From a virus (Duplodnaviria; Caudoviricetes): a stretch of DNA of 33,197 nucleotides. Location of the stretch: IMG/VR virus record IMGVR_UViG_3300043391_000060, positions 1-33,197 of that record; one strand, 5' to 3'. A program made the translations under genes and the position numbers. Below the pieces are notes generated by a model. It was given only the letters and a program-made list of their open reading frames with translations. It ran no database searches and had not been told where the DNA came from. Numbering within the stretch: position 1 is the first letter of the stretch; every line of letters starts with the position of its first letter. Of the stretch, positions 1,413-13,313 are shown in pieces.

Positions 1413-1441
1413 TTGACTTTTAAATAAAGTTGTGATATATT
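1413..1441 (+). promoter_or_regulatory. sigma70-like promoter with extended -10
   Basis: TTGACT (1413-1418), 17 bp spacer, TGn-TATATT (1436-1441); ATG at 1448. Confidence 0.7.
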
Positions 1442-1447
1442 AATATT

Positions 1448-1714
1448 ATGAAATACAATGAAGATAAGATACTAAACGAAATCTTAACGTACATTAAAGG
1501 TACGTATGGCCAACATTACTCAACAGGTAAAGATGGCTTTCAAATACAAGATTTGTTTAAGACTTTAAACATTGGAAAAGATTTTTGTCATGCCAACGCA
1601 ATTAAGTACTTGTGTAGGTACGGTAAAAAAAACGGGTATAACCGAGCTGACTTGCTTAAAGCAGTACACTATGTTATACTATTATTAAACTATGATAAGG
1701 AGAACGTGAAATGA
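1448..1714 (+). CDS. DUF3310-like protein, commonly found before the sliding clamp in T4-like marine phages
   Basis: QHY, FCHANAIKYLCRYGKKNG and DLLKA motifs; synteny. Confidence 0.7.
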   Translation: MKYNEDKILNEILTYIKGTYGQHYSTGKDGFQIQDLFKTLNIGKDFCHANAIKYLCRYGKKNGYNRADLLKAVHYVILLLNYDKENVK

Positions 1715-2376
1715 ACCTAAGTACAGACACACTGGCCATTTTAAAGAATTTTAGTGAGATCAATAACAATATTCTTTTTAAACCAGGCAGTAAGTTAAAC
1801 ACAATATCTGCTATGAAAAACATTCTAGCAGAAGCAACAGTAACAGAAAAATTCGACACAGAATTTGGTATATATTCCCTTGATGAATTTTTAAGAGCAG
1901 TAGAACTATTTGATAAACCTGCTGTTAAAATCAATGGGGCAAATTATGCTGTGATCTCTGATGAAAAATCTAAACAGATAATCAGATACTTCTTTGCAGA
2001 CAAATCAACATTAGTATCTCCTCAAAAAGGTATTAGTATGCCAGATAAGACGGTGGCATTTACTTTAAAGAAAGATGACTTTGCTAAGATACAAAAAGCA
2101 GCTACAACATTAAATTTACCAGATATCGCAATTAAAGGTAATGGTAAAACAATATCGTTTGTCGCAACTGATAAGAAAAATAAATCATCAAACGATTATT
2201 CTTTAGTATTAGGTGAAACAGATAAAACGTTTACTGCATATTTTAAAGCAGAGAACTTTAAAATCATTCCTGATGATTATGATGTGGCAATATCTAAAGC
2301 CAAAGTTAGTAACTTCATTAACAGAAGCAAACCAGTACAGTATTGGATCGCATTAGAGCCAGATTCGGAGTTCTAA
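1711..2376 (+). CDS. gp45: sliding clamp, DNA polymerase accessory protein
   Basis: MNLSTDTLAILKNFSEIN start, FGIYSLDEFL, YWIALE end; upstream of clamp loader. Confidence 0.95.
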   Translation: MNLSTDTLAILKNFSEINNNILFKPGSKLNTISAMKNILAEATVTEKFDTEFGIYSLDEFLRAVELFDKPAVKINGANYAVISDEKSKQIIRYFFADKSTLVSPQKGISMPDKTVAFTLKKDDFAKIQKAATTLNLPDIAIKGNGKTISFVATDKKNKSSNDYSLVLGETDKTFTAYFKAENFKIIPDDYDVAISKAKVSNFINRSKPVQYWIALEPDSEF

Positions 2377-2677: not shown

Positions 2678-3622
2678 ATGTCAGACTTTTTGTGGGTTGA
2701 AAAATACCGACCAAGAAAGATACAAGATTGTATCTTATCAGAAGATTTAAAACAAACTTTCTTAGAGTTCGTTAAGAAAAAAGAAATACCTAATCTATTA
2801 TTATCAGGTACAGCCGGCACAGGTAAGACTACTGTTGCTCGTGCTTTATGTGAAGAAATAGGTGTTGATTACATTATCATAAACGGTTCAGATGAAGGCC
2901 GTCAGATTGATACATTAAGAAATAAAATCAAAAACTTTGCATCTACAATGTCTCTTACTAGAGAGGCCAATCATAAAGTTGTAATTATAGATGAGGCCGA
3001 TTATATGAACGCCGAATCTGTACAACCAGCATTGAGAAACTTTATTGAAACGTTTTTTAATAACTGTAGATTTATTTTTACTTGCAATTACAAGAACAAA
3101 ATCATACCTGCTTTACACAGTCGTTGTACTGTAGTTGATTTTAGAATTGTGAATGGCCAAAAGGCAATCACTCAAAATGATTTTCTTAAAAGACTTGAAG
3201 TTATATTAAAAGAAGAAGAAGTAAAATATGATAAAAAGATTTTAGTTCAACTTCTTTTAAAACACTATCCAGATTTTAGAAGAACGATAAATGAATTACA
3301 AAGATATTCTGTTCGTGGTACTATAGACAGTGGTATTCTTTTTAATCTATCAGAAGAAAGTATTAAAGGATTAATTATTAATTTAAAAGAAAAAGATTTT
3401 AATGCTATGCGTAAATGGGTAGTACAAAATTTAGATAAAGAAACAAGTGCTGTGTTTAAAGAAGTCTATGACAGTCTTTATAAATCTTTAGACCCTAAAT
3501 CAATACCACAGGCAGTATTAATTATTGCTGGCTATCAATACAAGGCGGCCTTTGTTGCCGACCAAGAAATTAATATGGTGGCCTGCTTAACCGAAATAAT
3601 GGCTGGGTGTAAATTTAAATGA
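2678..3622 (+). CDS. gp44: clamp loader large subunit (AAA+ ATPase)
   Basis: LWVEKYRP, Walker A GTAGTGKT, Walker B IIDEAD, SRC motif. Confidence 0.97.
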   Translation: MSDFLWVEKYRPRKIQDCILSEDLKQTFLEFVKKKEIPNLLLSGTAGTGKTTVARALCEEIGVDYIIINGSDEGRQIDTLRNKIKNFASTMSLTREANHKVVIIDEADYMNAESVQPALRNFIETFFNNCRFIFTCNYKNKIIPALHSRCTVVDFRIVNGQKAITQNDFLKRLEVILKEEEVKYDKKILVQLLLKHYPDFRRTINELQRYSVRGTIDSGILFNLSEESIKGLIINLKEKDFNAMRKWVVQNLDKETSAVFKEVYDSLYKSLDPKSIPQAVLIIAGYQYKAAFVADQEINMVACLTEIMAGCKFK

Positions 3623-4188
3623 GTAATAGATATGATTATTGGGCACTTTCAAATGTTTTCAACAAAGAACAAATTTTGGAAATCAATAACTTTATTGATA
3701 ATAATTTTAACAAGTTTGAAGAAGATGATAAGGCTGCCAGAGATTTACAAGGAAATAAAAAGAAATCTGGCATAGTCAAGGTAATTAATTACGAAAAGGT
3801 TAAACATTTATTAACAGATATAGTAGATAGAGTTATTAATATATCTGAACTTGAATTTGGTTATTTAATATACGGTTTAAAGAATAGAAGTGAATTACAT
3901 TTAAACAGTTATTCATCAAATAATTTAGAAAAATATGATTGGCATACAGATCAAACAAAATCAGACTTGCATGATATTAAATTAACGGTATTAATCAATC
4001 TATCTACAGAACAATATGAAGGAGGACAATTTCAATTGTTCAATACAAATGAATATGAAGTAAAAGACTTAAATATACCAGGCAATGTTATTATGTTTAA
4101 ATCTTATATAAACCATAGAGTATTGCCAGTAACAAAAGGTCAAAGAAGAACATTGGCCATATTTTTGAAGGGACCTAAGTTTAGATAA
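3619..4188 (+). CDS. 2OG-Fe(II) oxygenase (PKHD/prolyl-hydroxylase-like)
   Basis: YDWHTD, YEGGQF, HRVLPVTKGQRRTL. Confidence 0.88.
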   Translation: MSNRYDYWALSNVFNKEQILEINNFIDNNFNKFEEDDKAARDLQGNKKKSGIVKVINYEKVKHLLTDIVDRVINISELEFGYLIYGLKNRSELHLNSYSSNNLEKYDWHTDQTKSDLHDIKLTVLINLSTEQYEGGQFQLFNTNEYEVKDLNIPGNVIMFKSYINHRVLPVTKGQRRTLAIFLKGPKFR

Positions 4189-4724
4189 TGTTTTACGTAG
4201 AAGATAATAATTTTTTAACACAACAACAAATAGAGTTTATTAATAATATTTTCGTTGATAAACAAATGCCTTTTTATTATCAACAAGATTCTGTCAAAGG
4301 AGATAACGTTTCTTTTTTAGCACACATAATAAAAGATAGACCAGAATTTTCTAAAGACAAAACAAATGTAAATTCTCATATATACTATCCACCATTCAGA
4401 GATATATTAATATCGTTTTGCAAAAAGAATAAGATAATGTTTAATGAGATATTGAGGATAGCAGTTAATATTACATACAACAATGGTGCAGAAACATGTC
4501 CTATACACAATGACCATGATTATCCACATAAACAATTATTATTATATTTGAATGATCCATTGGATAAACAATCCAAAACTGTTGTATTAGATGACGATAA
4601 AAAGACAATTTTAAAAGAAATTATACCTGAAAGATTTAAAGGTATATGTTTTGATAATAAACCACACTACCATCATTACCCCAAAATGGGAGAAAGGATT
4701 GTAGCAGTTTATACGTTTAGATAA
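4188..4724 (+). CDS. 2OG-Fe(II) oxygenase-like protein
   Basis: IHND, LLLYLND, distal His (PHYH), ERIVAVYTF. Confidence 0.7.
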   Translation: MFYVEDNNFLTQQQIEFINNIFVDKQMPFYYQQDSVKGDNVSFLAHIIKDRPEFSKDKTNVNSHIYYPPFRDILISFCKKNKIMFNEILRIAVNITYNNGAETCPIHNDHDYPHKQLLLYLNDPLDKQSKTVVLDDDKKTILKEIIPERFKGICFDNKPHYHHYPKMGERIVAVYTFR

Positions 4725-4799
4725 GCGGGCATAGTTCAGTGGTAGAACAATAGTTTACCAAACTATAGGTCGTGGGTTCGAGTCCCACTGTCCGCTCCA
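4725..4799 (+). tRNA. tRNA-Gly, anticodon ACC (4757-4759), CCA encoded
   Basis: Cloverleaf: GCGGGCA/TGTCCGC acceptor, GTTC/GAAC D stem, ATAGT-TTACCAA-ACTAT anticodon arm, GTGGG-TTCGAGT-CCCAC T arm, U73 then CCA. Confidence 0.93.
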
Positions 4800-4806
4800 A
4801 AATTAT

Positions 4807-5196
4807 ATGTACGAATTAAAAGATTATTTAAAAGCAATTAATGAAAGTAAAGAAAACCTATTAGACACAGATGACGCAACGTGGGAAAAGAAGTACCCAC
4901 CTTATGTTATAAATCGTTGTCTTTCTATGTTTTGGGATACGGTAATGCCAGCCAACGAAATGAATGGCCTTCACTTTCTACCTAAACAACTACAATTTCA
5001 CTTTTTAATAAATAGTATCAGAAAAAAGAAGCGATTTGGTGGTAAGTGGTTATCACAAACCAAGTTGAAAGATTTAGAGTATGTGAAAGAATACTATGGT
5101 TATAGCAATGAAAAGGCAAGAGAGGCCTTAACTTTATTGACCAAAGAACAACTTGAACATATAAAAACAAAGTTATTTAAAGGTGGGAGAGAGTAA
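4807..5196 (+). CDS. gp62: clamp loader small subunit
   Basis: YPPYVINRCLS, ANEMN, VKEYYGYSNEKAREAL; between gp44 and regA. Confidence 0.93.
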   Translation: MYELKDYLKAINESKENLLDTDDATWEKKYPPYVINRCLSMFWDTVMPANEMNGLHFLPKQLQFHFLINSIRKKKRFGGKWLSQTKLKDLEYVKEYYGYSNEKAREALTLLTKEQLEHIKTKLFKGGRE

Positions 5197-5198
5197 TA

Positions 5199-5630
5199 AT
5201 GGATAATATTAAGTGGTCTATAGAGGACATGTTAGAAGTAACAATCAAACAGCCTGATGACTTTTTAAAAGTAAGAGAAACACTTACAAGAATAGGTGTA
5301 GCGTCAAGAAAAGACAAGACTTTATTTCAGTCATGTCATATACTTCATAAACAAGGTAAATATTACATAGTACACTTTAAAGAGCTATTTGCTCTTGATG
5401 GTAAGACAGCTACATTATCAGAAAACGATATTCAAAGAAGAAACACAATTGCAGTATTATTAGCAGATTGGTCTTTAATTGATATAGTAAAAAAAGAGGC
5501 AGCTGAAAACAAAGCACCGTTAAGTCAAATTAAAGTATTACCTTTTAAAGAAAAGAAAGATTGGATACTATCCGCAAAATATAATATTGGTAAAAAAATA
5601 GTTAAAGATGATGAAACAAATGGTGAATAA
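5199..5630 (+). CDS. regA: translational repressor RegA
   Basis: DDFLKVRETLTRIGVASRK, QSCHILHKQGKYYIVHFKELFALDG. Confidence 0.97.
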   Translation: MDNIKWSIEDMLEVTIKQPDDFLKVRETLTRIGVASRKDKTLFQSCHILHKQGKYYIVHFKELFALDGKTATLSENDIQRRNTIAVLLADWSLIDIVKKEAAENKAPLSQIKVLPFKEKKDWILSAKYNIGKKIVKDDETNGE

Positions 5631-7118
5631 ATGCAAGTATCTAAGTTTAAAGAGTTTATAAAAGAAGCAAGACAGCAAGATGAAACCGATCCTATTACGG
5701 TCGTTGTCATTAGCAAATCTTCTCCTAAAGTAAGACGACAGAAAACTGGTAACAAGAAATCTAAAAAAGAAATTACAGTAAGTTTTGTACAGAAGTCTTG
5801 TGCTAAAAGAAAAATACCTTGTTACATAATCAATACAAAATTCTCAATTATCACAGATAAAGACGAAGGAAAAAATACATTAACTATCTATAACTATGAT
5901 GGTGAAGATGGTGAACAAACATTCATTGGTAAGAATACAGTAGTTATTACAAGAGCAGGTGCCATAGAAGATGAAGCAGGCCTTTCTTTAATATCAGCAT
6001 TTCAAAATTCTGGTTCATTTATGTTAAACACCAGATCAGCAATGTTAACATGTGATAACAAACTAACTTCGGCATTGTTATTTGAAAAGTTTAATATACC
6101 AACTCCAAAAACTGCCTTCATATCAAACGAAAAGAATTTAGATAACGCATTAAAACTTGTAGGTAATAAGTTTCCAGTTATCGTAAAGACATTAACAGGC
6201 ACACAAGGTATTGGTGTTGTTAAAGTTGATAGTTATGATTCATTAGTATCAGTAGTACAAGCATTATTTAAACATGACGCTGAATTATTATTACAAGAAT
6301 ATATGCCAACAGATTCAGATATAAGAACTTTTGTTGTAGATAATAAAATATTTGCATGTACAAAACGTGTTAAAAAATCTGGAGAGTTTAGATCAAACGT
6401 ACATAGAGGTGCTGTTGCTGAACCATATAAATTATCTGACGAAGAAATAGAAATTGTTTTAAGAACAGCAAGAGCATCAAAAGCATATCTTGTAGGTATA
6501 GATCACATTACATATAAAGGGAAAATTTATGTATTAGAAGCAAATGGTTCACCAGGAACCGGAGCTGATTATGAAGGATATCATTATGAAGATTATATAG
6601 ATACACCAAACACAATAGGACCGATTAAAGGAAGTCAGTTAATTGATAATGTTATAGAATATATTTCAAATAGAAAACACTGGGATAGACAATCAATTGT
6701 AGAAGTGGGTTACCTTGAAACAATAGAAATATCTACAGTAGGAAAAGTAAGAGCAAAATTAGATACAGGTAACGGGGCGGAAACTTGTGCTTTACATGCA
6801 GAAGAAGTAGAAGTAAAAGATGGTAAAGTTTCTTGGAAGTATGACGGCAAAAAACATTCAAGCAAGTTAGAAGGCTATCATAAAATTTTTAGAGCAAATA
6901 CAGATGATGGTCAAGGAGAAAAAAGACCAGTTGTTAAACTAGATTTAACATTTAATGGATTTACATACAAAGATATATCTTTTGGACTTGATGAAAGAAA
7001 AAGATCAGCGTCTGATGCACTATTGAATAGAGATATTATTAGAAAAATGAATGCTTCAGTTAATCCTAATAGAGAATTTGTATTAAGTAGAAGAATAAAA
7101 CCTATTGACAAAAAGTAA
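5631..7118 (+). CDS. rimK: RimK-family ATP-grasp glutamate ligase fused to a C-terminal retropepsin-like (RimB-type) protease domain
   Basis: DNKL, FPVIVKTLTGTQGIGV, LLQEY, DIRTFVV, FRSNVHRG, LEANGSPG; then AKLDTGNG...RPVV...LLNRD. Confidence 0.85.
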   Translation: MQVSKFKEFIKEARQQDETDPITVVVISKSSPKVRRQKTGNKKSKKEITVSFVQKSCAKRKIPCYIINTKFSIITDKDEGKNTLTIYNYDGEDGEQTFIGKNTVVITRAGAIEDEAGLSLISAFQNSGSFMLNTRSAMLTCDNKLTSALLFEKFNIPTPKTAFISNEKNLDNALKLVGNKFPVIVKTLTGTQGIGVVKVDSYDSLVSVVQALFKHDAELLLQEYMPTDSDIRTFVVDNKIFACTKRVKKSGEFRSNVHRGAVAEPYKLSDEEIEIVLRTARASKAYLVGIDHITYKGKIYVLEANGSPGTGADYEGYHYEDYIDTPNTIGPIKGSQLIDNVIEYISNRKHWDRQSIVEVGYLETIEISTVGKVRAKLDTGNGAETCALHAEEVEVKDGKVSWKYDGKKHSSKLEGYHKIFRANTDDGQGEKRPVVKLDLTFNGFTYKDISFGLDERKRSASDALLNRDIIRKMNASVNPNREFVLSRRIKPIDKK

Positions 7119-7797: not shown

Positions 7798-8109
7798 ATG
7801 TCAGAAGTAAAAATCTTTAGATTAAGTACAGGTGAAGATGTTATCGGTCAAAAATCAGAAGATAGCGATTCAAATTTAACTCATATAAAACAACCGTTCG
7901 TGATTGTACCAATGCAATCAAAACCAGGTGGGCCAGTATCTTTGGCGCTAACACCATACATGCCTTATTCTGAATCTGAAACTATCGTGCTAAAAACAAG
8001 TAACATTATAACAGAAGTACAACCAAAATTAGAAATCAAAAATTCTTATAATCAGCATTTAGGAACAGGAATAATTCAAGCAAAGAAACCTAAACTTATT
8101 ATAGATTGA
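7798..8109 (+). CDS. conserved T4-like hypothetical protein (possibly Sm-like fold)
   Basis: VKIFRLSTGEDVIG...PYMPYS family pattern; position upstream of gp43. Confidence 0.65.
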   Translation: MSEVKIFRLSTGEDVIGQKSEDSDSNLTHIKQPFVIVPMQSKPGGPVSLALTPYMPYSESETIVLKTSNIITEVQPKLEIKNSYNQHLGTGIIQAKKPKLIID

Positions 8110-11125: not shown

Positions 11126-11662
11126 ATGATTAATTTTCCTAATAAAAAATATAAAGTAATTTATGCTGATCCGCCTTGGTACTTCAAATCATACAGTAAA
11201 AAAGGTGAAGGAAGAAATGCTACACAACATTATGACTGTATGAAGATTGAAGATATTAAAAATCTACCAGTTAAAGATATATCAGAAAATGATTCAACAC
11301 TATTAATGTGGGTAACAGATCCTTTTTTAAAAATATCACTTGAAGTTATTGAGTCTTGGGGATTCAAATATAAAACTGTGGCATTTACCTGGGTGAAAAC
11401 CAATAAAAAAAGTCCAGGATATTTTAAAGGTTTGGGTTATTGGACAAGAGCTAATCCTGAAATGTGTTTGTTAGCAACTAAAGGCAAACCAAAAAGAATA
11501 AACAATGGAGTAGATCAACTTGTTGTTTCTAAATTAAGAGAACATTCAAGAAAACCTGATGAAGTTTATGAACGTATTGAAAAATTATTAGAAGGACCTT
11601 ATATAGAATTGTTTGCTCGTAATAAAAAAGATAATTGGTCTAGTTGGGGAAATCAAGTATGA
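11126..11662 (+). CDS. MT-A70 family N6-adenine methyltransferase
   Basis: VIYADPPW, LLMWVT, WGFKYKT, HSRKP, IELFAR. Confidence 0.92.
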   Translation: MINFPNKKYKVIYADPPWYFKSYSKKGEGRNATQHYDCMKIEDIKNLPVKDISENDSTLLMWVTDPFLKISLEVIESWGFKYKTVAFTWVKTNKKSPGYFKGLGYWTRANPEMCLLATKGKPKRINNGVDQLVVSKLREHSRKPDEVYERIEKLLEGPYIELFARNKKDNWSSWGNQV

Positions 11663-12762
11663 AAACTTTAACTAAAGAACAAGCACTACATTGTGCTAAA
11701 ATATTTAAAGATTATTTTGGTGGGTTTAATCGTATAGATGATTATATGAGAGATCAAAAACTGGCCTCTATACAAAACATTCCTGCTGGATTACCAGGCA
11801 TGAGTTTAGAAGATGATTTGTTTTCTGATTTTACAATGTCTCCTAATGATATGAAATTAGAAGTATTAGAAATAGATAATGTAACTTGGGACACTTGTAT
11901 TAATATGATATCAAGCCATAGTAACATGGTAAATATTCCTGGTAAAAATTTAAAATTAGCAGTTAAAGAAATGACAACTAATAAATTTGTTGGCTTTATA
12001 AGATTATCTTCACCAGTTATTAATATGAAACCTAGAAACGAAATGTTAGGTAATGTTCCCGATCTAAGTCATTTTAATAAAACGGCCATTATGGGGTTTG
12101 TAATAGTACCATCTCAACCTTTTGGTTATAATTATCTTGGTGGTAAACTATTGGCAGCTATTTGTTGTAGTCATAAAGTAAGAGACATGATGAATAAGAA
12201 GTATGATATGAACTTATGTTTATTTGAAACTACAAGTTTGTATGGTAACAGTAAATCATCAAGTCAGTATGATGGTATGAAACCTTATGTTAGATATAAA
12301 GGTCTAACTGATAGTGATTTTATTCCTATGTTACATGGTAAACCTTATGAACAATTAAGAGACTACGTTGAGAACATAGTAGGTGATCTAGTAAAAGAGG
12401 ATGCGTCTAGTAAGAAGTTAAAGTTAACTAATGCAATTATAGGTTTAATTAAACGATCTTTAAAAGACGACAAGACAGAACTAGAACATTTTAATAAAGT
12501 TATCAACAACGCAAAAGACTTGACAGAACAGAAAAGATACTATATAAGCCATTATGGTATCAAAAATTATATTGATATAGTAAATGGTAAGACAGATACT
12601 ATAATTAAAGATGATACCTATGATAAATTTGAACTAGAAAGTATTATAGAATGGTGGAGAAAGAAAGCGGCCATTCGTTATGAGACTTTAAAGAAAGAAA
12701 ATAGAATAAGAAATGAACTTGAACTTTGGACCAAAAATTCTTCAATACAAATCATACGATAA
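11659..12762 (+). CDS. DUF4338/DruA-like protein (start re-assigned to ATG 11659)
   Basis: PFGYNYLGGKLLAAICCS, FETTSLYG...SQY motifs; ATGA overlap with the methyltransferase stop. Confidence 0.6.
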   Translation: MKTLTKEQALHCAKIFKDYFGGFNRIDDYMRDQKLASIQNIPAGLPGMSLEDDLFSDFTMSPNDMKLEVLEIDNVTWDTCINMISSHSNMVNIPGKNLKLAVKEMTTNKFVGFIRLSSPVINMKPRNEMLGNVPDLSHFNKTAIMGFVIVPSQPFGYNYLGGKLLAAICCSHKVRDMMNKKYDMNLCLFETTSLYGNSKSSSQYDGMKPYVRYKGLTDSDFIPMLHGKPYEQLRDYVENIVGDLVKEDASSKKLKLTNAIIGLIKRSLKDDKTELEHFNKVINNAKDLTEQKRYYISHYGIKNYIDIVNGKTDTIIKDDTYDKFELESIIEWWRKKAAIRYETLKKENRIRNELELWTKNSSIQIIR

Positions 12763-12836: not shown

Positions 12837-13313
12837 ATGGAACAGAACAAACTTTTAATACACAAACATTTAATTATTAGAGCCGAAGTGAAAAACCCAC
12901 CAAAAAACGAAGAACAACTTACAAACTGGTTAAAAGATTTTATTACTTTCATAGACATGAAAGTTTTAATGGGACCTTATGTTAGATATTGTAATACAGT
13001 GGGTAACAGAGGCATTACAGGTGTGGCCGTTATTGAAACAAGTCATATAGCAATGCACGTTTGGGACGAAACAGATCCTGGCATTATGCAGTTTGATGTT
13101 TATAGCTGCTCAGAATTTGATCCATATAAGATTGCAGATAAATTACAAGCAGACTTTGAAGTAACTAAATTAGATTATAAGTTCCTTAATAGAGAAACTG
13201 AATTGAAACCTATAAGGTTAAAGAAAGATACAATGAAAAACGTGGAAACTCATAAATATGCAAATAGTAATAATCAACAGACTCAACAACCCACCCTATT
13301 TAATATCTCCTAA
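12837..13313 (+). CDS. speD: S-adenosylmethionine decarboxylase family proenzyme (pyruvoyl-dependent)
   Basis: HLI, GITGVAVIETSHIAMHVW, FDVYSC. Confidence 0.85.
   Translation: MEQNKLLIHKHLIIRAEVKNPPKNEEQLTNWLKDFITFIDMKVLMGPYVRYCNTVGNRGITGVAVIETSHIAMHVWDETDPGIMQFDVYSCSEFDPYKIADKLQADFEVTKLDYKFLNRETELKPIRLKKDTMKNVETHKYANSNNQQTQQPTLFNIS

Follow-up and report, generated by a model that had tools for sequence, protein, structure and literature searches.

Elongator tRNA-Gly of the bacterial type combines a cloverleaf having invariant D- and T-loop bases and a glycine identity set with the anticodon GCC, UCC or CCC. In published work Gly(ACC) stands on a list of universally missing tRNAs, and phages are said to lack the same genes as bacteria (PMC8007984). 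Its absence has been ascribed to loop structure, the Gly loop being held unable to carry A34, and in simulations A34 was found to distort this loop (PMC4928997). A GtRNAdb survey records all ANN types at low numbers (bioRxiv 10.64898/2026.05.15.725136), and fungal mitochondria already provide exceptions to the 'universally missing' label. In E. coli, glyU-ACC is reported to mature unedited, and a chromosomal copy is without growth-rate cost; when overexpressed, Gly(ACC) was the sole four-box A34 tRNA to impair both lag phase and growth rate (bioRxiv 10.64898/2026.05.15.725136). An orthogonal ACC tRNA, also without inosine, read GGU at 1.3%, GGC at 0.40% and GGG at 0.33%, with GGA below detection and a GGU:GGC ratio of 76:24 (PMC11066159). 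The earlier work of Boren 1993, as cited there, describes strong reading of GGU, weak reading of GGC and competition at GGA and GGG in vitro. We found no published report of a phage Gly(ACC) in a search that had supplements and subscription journals outside its scope (tRNA tables may list one), and the accessible parts of PMC6409571, PMC13015707 and PMC13715818 contain none.

The gene and its setting

ARAGORN finds one tRNA in the 33,197-nt stretch of viral DNA analysed here (the window), a tRNA-Gly(acc) at 4725-4799 on the + strand, to which Rfam RF00005 gives 72.7 bits (cut-off 29; E 2.9e-14). Base 4757 is an A, corresponding to A34, and the anticodon is ACC. All 21 of the 21 cloverleaf pairs form, with a single G-U at 5-68; the elbow bases G18, G19, T54, T55, C56 and A58 are present, as are the pairs G49-C65 and G51-C63, and the anticodon loop has U32/U33 before ACC and A37/A38 after it. 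The glycine set (G1-C72, C2-G71, G3-C70, U73, C35 and C36) is complete. None of 200 shuffles equals the fold (z -3.25), with the caveat that the MFE structure has another helix in place of the D arm. The sequence-only reading had described an intact cloverleaf with encoded CCA and glycine identity, and ARAGORN, Rfam, the pairing and the identity set agree on this. The gene thus has the cloverleaf, invariant loop bases and identity set of a bacterial-type elongator, and departs from that type in its anticodon; the altered D and T loops that characterise non-proteogenic tRNA-Gly of the Staphylococcus type (PMC8007984) are absent from it. We confirm it as an intact, conserved, accessory phage tRNA-Gly with an anticodon that cells avoid.

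Table 1. Positions in the window of the tRNA-Gly(ACC) gene and of the features around it.
Feature	Position	Strand	Remarks
sigma-70-like promoter candidate	1413..1441	+	10/12 matches, extended -10; upstream of the gp45-gp44-...-gp62 run
gp45 sliding clamp	1711..2376	+	phrog_223, E 9e-73
gp44 clamp-loader large subunit	2678..3622	+	phrog_168, E 1.5e-121; left border of the variable slot
2OG-Fe(II) oxygenase, accessory in slot	3619..4188	+	phrog_61; NF003974 match below cut-off
second accessory ORF in slot	4188..4724	+	phrog_274; no NCBIfam match
tRNA-Gly(ACC) gene	4725..4799	+	75 nt, encoded CCA, standard elbow, U32-A38, 5-nt variable loop
anticodon A34-C35-C36	4757..4759	+	same in 8/8 haplotypes
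gp62 clamp-loader small subunit	4807..5196	+	phrog_225
regA translation repressor	5199..5630	+	phrog_242

The source contig, a linear virus record with a completeness of about 18%, has T4-like genes (gp45, gp44, gp62, regA, DNA polymerase, UvsX and helicase). Mosig, a Pelagibacter phage, has the most similar polymerase (77.5% identity), the next best match among 2683 records being at 50.9%, and we therefore infer a SAR11 host. The window is a T4-like, pelagimyophage-like fragment with relatives among the viruses of SAR11 bacteria. Some uncertainty about the host remains, because a close methylophage relative has OM43 as its host (PMC9004378). An S-adenosylmethionine decarboxylase gene (12837-13313) and a DNA methyltransferase region (11126-12762) lie between polymerase and UvsX, and the decarboxylase gene matches the freshwater group of PMC7029224. 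A RimK-family ATP-grasp ligase (5631-7118) scores above the TIGR00768 cut-off; its C-terminal part is weakly like retropepsin RloA peptidases.

The 5' end of the tRNA directly abuts the stop codon of the second accessory ORF, and the gp62 start codon lies 7 nt 3' of its CCA. The promoter scan as a whole was at chance level (47 sites vs 43.5), and a site similar to the candidate at 1413-1441 is equally placed in a related locus (L131). The tRNA is thus likely cut from a longer transcript, of which this candidate may be the source.

Conservation of the tRNA body

When position 34 was left free in the search pattern, five of five viral matches to the window tRNA body read ACC. A wider pattern returned 93 metagenome stretches, of which 11 read ACC, 18 GCC and 64 CCC; 10 of the 11 ACC stretches adjoin gp62, as do 2 of the 18 with GCC, and none of the 64 with CCC lies beside gp44 or gp62. 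The metagenome stretches that have the window tRNA body carry A34 in 11 cases out of 11. This body occurs as 8 haplotypes at 49 loci, a figure that includes many repeat fetches of one contig and reduces to 26 distinct flanking contexts, and ACC is found in all of them. It had been foreseen that relatives at the same locus might all have GCC or TCC; every copy of this tRNA body proved to be ACC. That base 4757 is a sequencing error or a private mutation is ruled out by these independent assemblies, and an explanation of the gene as an artefact or a decaying pseudogene is vanishingly improbable, given that A34 recurs in every viral and metagenome match to this body with the base unconstrained and that none of the 8 haplotypes has a disruptive change.

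The seven variable sites of the body all (7/7) preserve pairing or sit at tolerant positions. Under our own rule set, 26-37% of random changes would be compatible with the structure, which gives about 1e-3 for seven. Compared with the window copy, the tRNA differs at 0-6 of 72 sites, whereas fourfold sites of gp44 differ by 15-48%. Selection on the tRNA is evident from this, but not selection on A34 specifically.

An accessory gene in a variable slot

The gp62 comparison covered the best 80 of about 1600 loci (an estimate). This tRNA lies between gp44 and gp62 in 9 of these 80, all nine with gp62 at least 90% identical, and 11 of the 20 loci with gp62 at least 84% identical have no such tRNA in the slot, some of them being 97-99% identical in gp62. 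A quick gp44+gp62 tree (no bootstrap, 64 of 82 rows) places the 7 carriers in one 14-row group (SH-aLRT 90), interspersed with 7 non-carriers; the sister row of this group has Gly(GCC) in the slot, and more distant phages have Gly(GCC) or Thr(TGT) there. The window tRNA is thus accessory, its presence in the gp44-gp62 slot changing from phage to phage. The Gly(GCC) of the sister row (L144), just before gp62, has an altered elbow and is missed by ARAGORN. Six loci (L163, L165, L173, L198, L202 and L203) have tRNA-Thr(TGT) in the slot, 8-11 nt before the gp62 start.

The short distance to gp62, 7-17 nt from the end of a Gly(ACC), Gly(GCC) or Thr(TGT) gene while the upstream genes vary, could point to a role outside decoding: the cloverleaf might be a processing signal, giving a gp62 message with a 7-nt leader and tuning gp44:gp62 output, or a recombination anchor for cassette exchange, the anticodon being incidental. 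We regard this as decidedly unlikely, since in many close relatives gp44 directly adjoins gp62 or the slot is filled by other genes, three carrier contexts have an ORF-sized stretch of 435-502 nt between tRNA and gp62, and the GlyRS determinants and C35-C36 are fully kept.

A search that tolerates an odd elbow recovered further Gly tRNAs that escape ARAGORN, most of them located upstream of gp45. With these included, the best 80 gp62 loci comprise 24 with ACC (9 standard, 15 odd), 13 with TCC, 5 with GCC and 42 with none; four loci, all of them near carriers (4/9), have both ACC and TCC. In these (L131 at ~200-275, L134, L135 and L141) an odd-elbow Gly(TCC) stands upstream of gp45 besides the standard Gly(ACC); an odd-elbow Gly(TCC) was not found in the window, which has an accessory ORF at the matching place. 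Six other loci (L157, L162, L172, L180, L183 and L184) have an odd-elbow ACC or TCC tRNA-Gly upstream of gp45. The cultured phage Mosig EXVC030M (MT647606.1) has an odd-elbow Gly(ACC) as well (L833:7779-7852, minus strand, anticodon at 7820), which lies under the annotated hypothetical protein Mosig_000011 and was missed by an Rfam search of the record. Since standard tRNA finders miss many such genes, phage tRNA catalogues undercount them.

Among related phages position 34 is thus A, U or G while C35-C36 stay fixed, and two loci with identical gp44+gp62 proteins differ in having TCC (L178) or ACC (L180). Such a pattern would suit an escape from a host defence nuclease that cuts tRNA-Gly(GCC) or (UCC) at the anticodon, the A34 copy surviving and keeping glycine decoding going. 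The patchy presence of the gene would fit a counter-defence function, and precedents exist for other tRNAs (PMC10264068, PMC11464382, PMC11555353). Switching at position 34 also fits drift or cassette exchange, however, and we consider nuclease escape unlikely.

Predicted charging and decoding

We favour, with a probability of roughly two in three, the view that the gene encodes a working elongator tRNA whose unedited A34 reads GGU and, weakly, GGC, and which supplements the host pool. Host enzymes would probably cut it out of the replication-gene transcript, and the host glycyl-tRNA synthetase would probably charge it. GlyRS recognises U73, C35 and the first pairs; in the E. coli GlyRS-tRNA structure U73 and C35 are the key contacts, and base 34 contributes a single hydrogen bond (PMC9908026), so charging of Gly(ACC) is expected. 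A34, likely to remain free of inosine, would pair with U in the usual way to read GGU and would read GGC less well; the phage tRNA would in this way take the role normally filled by the GCC tRNA and enlarge the host supply for the codon that the phage group prefers. Points against this view are that the hosts have Gly(GCC), which reads GGU by wobble, that codon use shows no response to the tRNA, that many close relatives do without it, that overexpressed Gly(ACC) harmed E. coli, and that A34 distorted the Gly loop in simulations. The sequence-only reading had proposed that the tRNA may read GGU directly, and such reading by an unedited A34 fits the published work on engineered tRNA-Gly(ACC).

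The alternative that host TadA edits A34 to inosine, allowing the tRNA to read GGU, GGC and GGA, draws on short TadA-like ORFs in 35 of 101 Pelagibacteraceae genomes; for the two ORFs tested the best NCBIfam match is TadA, below the cut-off, with none above it. TadA needs G36, as found in the loop of its ACG substrate, and the window tRNA has C36. No deaminase was found in the contig, which holds about 18% of the genome. ACC tRNAs were unedited in two E. coli studies (bioRxiv 10.64898/2026.05.15.725136; PMC11066159) and are described as poor ADAT substrates (PMC4928997), and we hold editing to be highly unlikely here. One Pelagibacter genome (G001; L568, L574) has both Arg(ACG) and Arg(TCG), and with TadA-like ORFs in 35/101 genomes the handling of A34 in SAR11 may vary. 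An unedited GGU reader thus remains our preferred reading because of the GlyRS contacts, the unedited, GGU-reading behaviour of engineered ACC tRNAs and the patchy occurrence of TadA-like ORFs.

Glycine codon use

GGT had been judged by eye to be the dominant glycine codon, and the counts agree: the 48 ORFs of the window have 579 glycine codons, of which 314 (54%) are GGT, 139 GGA, 103 GGC and 23 GGG. As codon compensation would predict, GGT is commoner here than in Pelagibacteraceae loci (40% of 2003 glycine codons); its share reaches 61-71% across the whole phage group in the loci compared. Contrary to the same prediction, carriers do not use GGT more than non-carriers do. In orthologous core genes of near phages the median GGT share is 0.72 in 8 carriers vs 0.71 in 7 non-carriers (p 0.49), and in orthologous genes of distant phages it is 0.68 (n=15 carriers) vs 0.67 (n=34 non-carriers; p 0.96). 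The expectation that the tRNA tracks codon use is not borne out by these equal shares, and selection on A34 itself is for the same reason not demonstrated. The anticodon matches the favoured codon, yet no codon response to the tRNA was seen. An excess of GGA in carriers (0.23 vs 0.14, p 0.015), obtained with all ORFs and ARAGORN-only labels, was gone on orthologous genes (0.04 vs 0.04). Distant carriers have more GGC (p 0.012) and less GGA (p 0.042), these p values being uncorrected and the rows not independent.

Among unrelated phages (29 ACC clusters from 73 of 80 loci; 56 GCC clusters from 70 of 80), median GC is 0.35 with ACC vs 0.44 with GCC (p 1.6e-4), and 23 of the 29 ACC clusters lie below 40% GC, vs 18 of the 56 GCC clusters. 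The GGT:GGC ratio is 0.80 in ACC phages vs 0.64 in GCC phages (p 0.01), a difference that is gone below 40% GC (0.84 vs 0.81, p 0.51).

Occurrence and origins of Gly(ACC)

With one pattern that requires a standard T loop, viral stretches hold about 120 ACC, 2400 GCC and 8000 TCC matches, as estimated from 62, 4 and 1 of 64 parts, respectively, in a scan that covered these three anticodons. Gly(ACC) is thus about 1% of the glycine matches scanned in viruses, mostly in AT-rich phages, and ARAGORN confirms the anticodon in 109 of 120 loci. At 85%, the 63 distinct ACC sequences from viruses and metagenomes fall into 33 clusters, which argues for repeated origins. Among cells Gly(ACC) is much scarcer: 185,579 GTDB genomes have about 180 ACC-pattern stretches, with whole tRNAs in only 33 of the 120 seen. 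Pelagibacteraceae Gly tRNAs are GCC and TCC (at least 131 of 151 genomes matched), and a search of 401 Pelagibacterales genomes yielded no intact Gly(ACC). The unpublished genome G051 enters the tallies of TadA-like ORFs, of Pelagibacteraceae Gly tRNAs and of the 401 genomes, and no claim depends on it alone. The rarity claimed for Gly(ACC) therefore stands for cells; in phages it is less exotic than had been implied, with its 33 clusters, and it is annotated in fungal mitochondria.

Some ACC phages carry more than one such gene: one locus type (L018; also L020, L033, L057 and L111) has a pair of dissimilar Gly(ACC) genes, of which one has a changed T loop, and two ACC genes lie on one contig in L086 and L087. 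tRNA arrays with ACC contain GCC in 1 of 10 cases and TCC in 7 of 10; this is weak evidence for replacement of GCC by ACC because GCC is about 3 times rarer than TCC in phages anyway. Glycine is also not the sole A34 type in phages, since 120 viral non-Arg A34 matches comprise Thr(AGT) (55), an ATT family (25), ACC (18), AAT (12) and AGC (5). Phage Thr(AGT) is common and diverse (L713-L832), and one family of near-identical tRNA-like genes has ATT, AAT or AGT on one body.

The U32-A38 pair is found in 98 of 106 viral GCC vs 19 of 113 viral TCC tRNAs; for a 5-nt variable loop the counts are 86 of 106 vs 40 of 113. Having both, the window tRNA body belongs with the GCC or CCC tRNAs. In the phage collection it is most similar to tRNA-Gly genes that share 74-80% identity with it. 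Among non-ACC bodies, likeness is highest at 86% (CCC), followed by 82% (CCC, TCC) and 81% (GCC); host Gly tRNAs reach 69-74%, so the change to ACC is old. We rejected recent capture from the host on the low likeness of the host tRNAs, and for a recent one-base origin of the window gene no twin was found, the closest non-ACC body being the CCC one at 86%. Another ACC cluster does have a GCC twin, identical except at position 34. A host origin of ACC also failed: the Pelagibacter match L238 (~3001-3041, minus strand) consists of a 3' half with no 5' half, and a T loop is lacking in the remaining 18 of 19 pattern matches from the 401 genomes. The L238 half copies a host tRNA-Gly(GCC) but reads ACC; it lies some 1.6 kb away from the intact gene and resembles a scar left by integration.

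These data bear on why A34 is there. It is possible, though clearly less probable than the view we favour, that A34 is tolerated drift: the tRNA would work, and AT-biased mutation would have produced an A34 equivalent to G34 for a phage in which GGC is uncommon and whose host supplies GCC. This explanation agrees with ours on decoding and differs on the reason for A34. It is favoured by the link between ACC and low GC, by the lack of a codon shift in carriers, by the occurrence of ACC on 33 unlike bodies, with one GCC twin that differs only at position 34, and by the chromosomal glyU-ACC without growth-rate cost in E. coli (bioRxiv 10.64898/2026.05.15.725136). Against it, no reversion is seen in 8 haplotypes and 26 contexts, a weak argument because just 7 sites vary, and none of the 401 AT-rich host genomes has an intact copy, which sets phages apart from cells under similar mutation pressure.

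Going beyond a supplementary GGU reader, phages might positively select precisely that four-box A34 tRNA which is rejected by cells, as a modification-free GGU reader or as an escape from a nuclease aimed at Gly(GCC). We offer this tentatively and think it doubtful. If it were true, Gly(ACC) would bias the ribosomes of infected cells in favour of phage messages rich in GGU, a price that falls on the host and that a lytic phage can avoid, and the 33 natural bodies, most of them with U32-A38, would show how a Gly loop can carry A34.

Comparison with known systems

Given that a conserved gene occurs naturally, that independent bodies number in the dozens, and that G34 twins and the cultured pair Mosig/HTCC1062 exist, the question of why cells avoid Gly(ACC) is now directly testable. 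Its significance is tempered by the mitochondrial precedent, by the working engineered versions and by the fact that selection on A34 itself is not demonstrated.

The tRNA-Gly genes (UCC, GCC) of T4-like phages resemble the window gene in their standard cloverleaf, glycine identity set, encoded CCA and accessory nature; the window gene differs in having ACC as its anticodon. The odd-elbow Gly(ACC/UCC) of Mosig and other pelagimyophages shares its anticodon, phage group and operon, but has another body and slot, upstream of gp45, and altered D and T loops. The engineered E. coli tRNA-Gly(ACC) (glyU-ACC; Boren 1993 via PMC11066159, PMC4928997) is likewise a bacterial Gly body with A34 and is reported to be unedited and active, reading GGU best; it harmed growth when overexpressed, whereas the window gene is natural and kept by selection on its fold. 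Natural A34 tRNAs that replace a G34 isoacceptor in the four-codon boxes of AT-rich genomes include Thr(AGU) in Mycoplasma and, in lactic acid bacteria, Leu(AAG) and Thr(AGU); the window tRNA differs in belonging to the Gly box and in being phage-borne and accessory, with the host GCC still present. Fungal mitochondrial trnG-ACC, reported for Fusarium equiseti (PMC7706831) and Penicillium (PMC5109282), has the same anticodon and stands beside a UCC gene, as in four of the nine near carriers. Those are organelle genes known, in the accessible parts of these reports, by annotation, whereas the window tRNA must serve the ribosome of a free-living bacterium.
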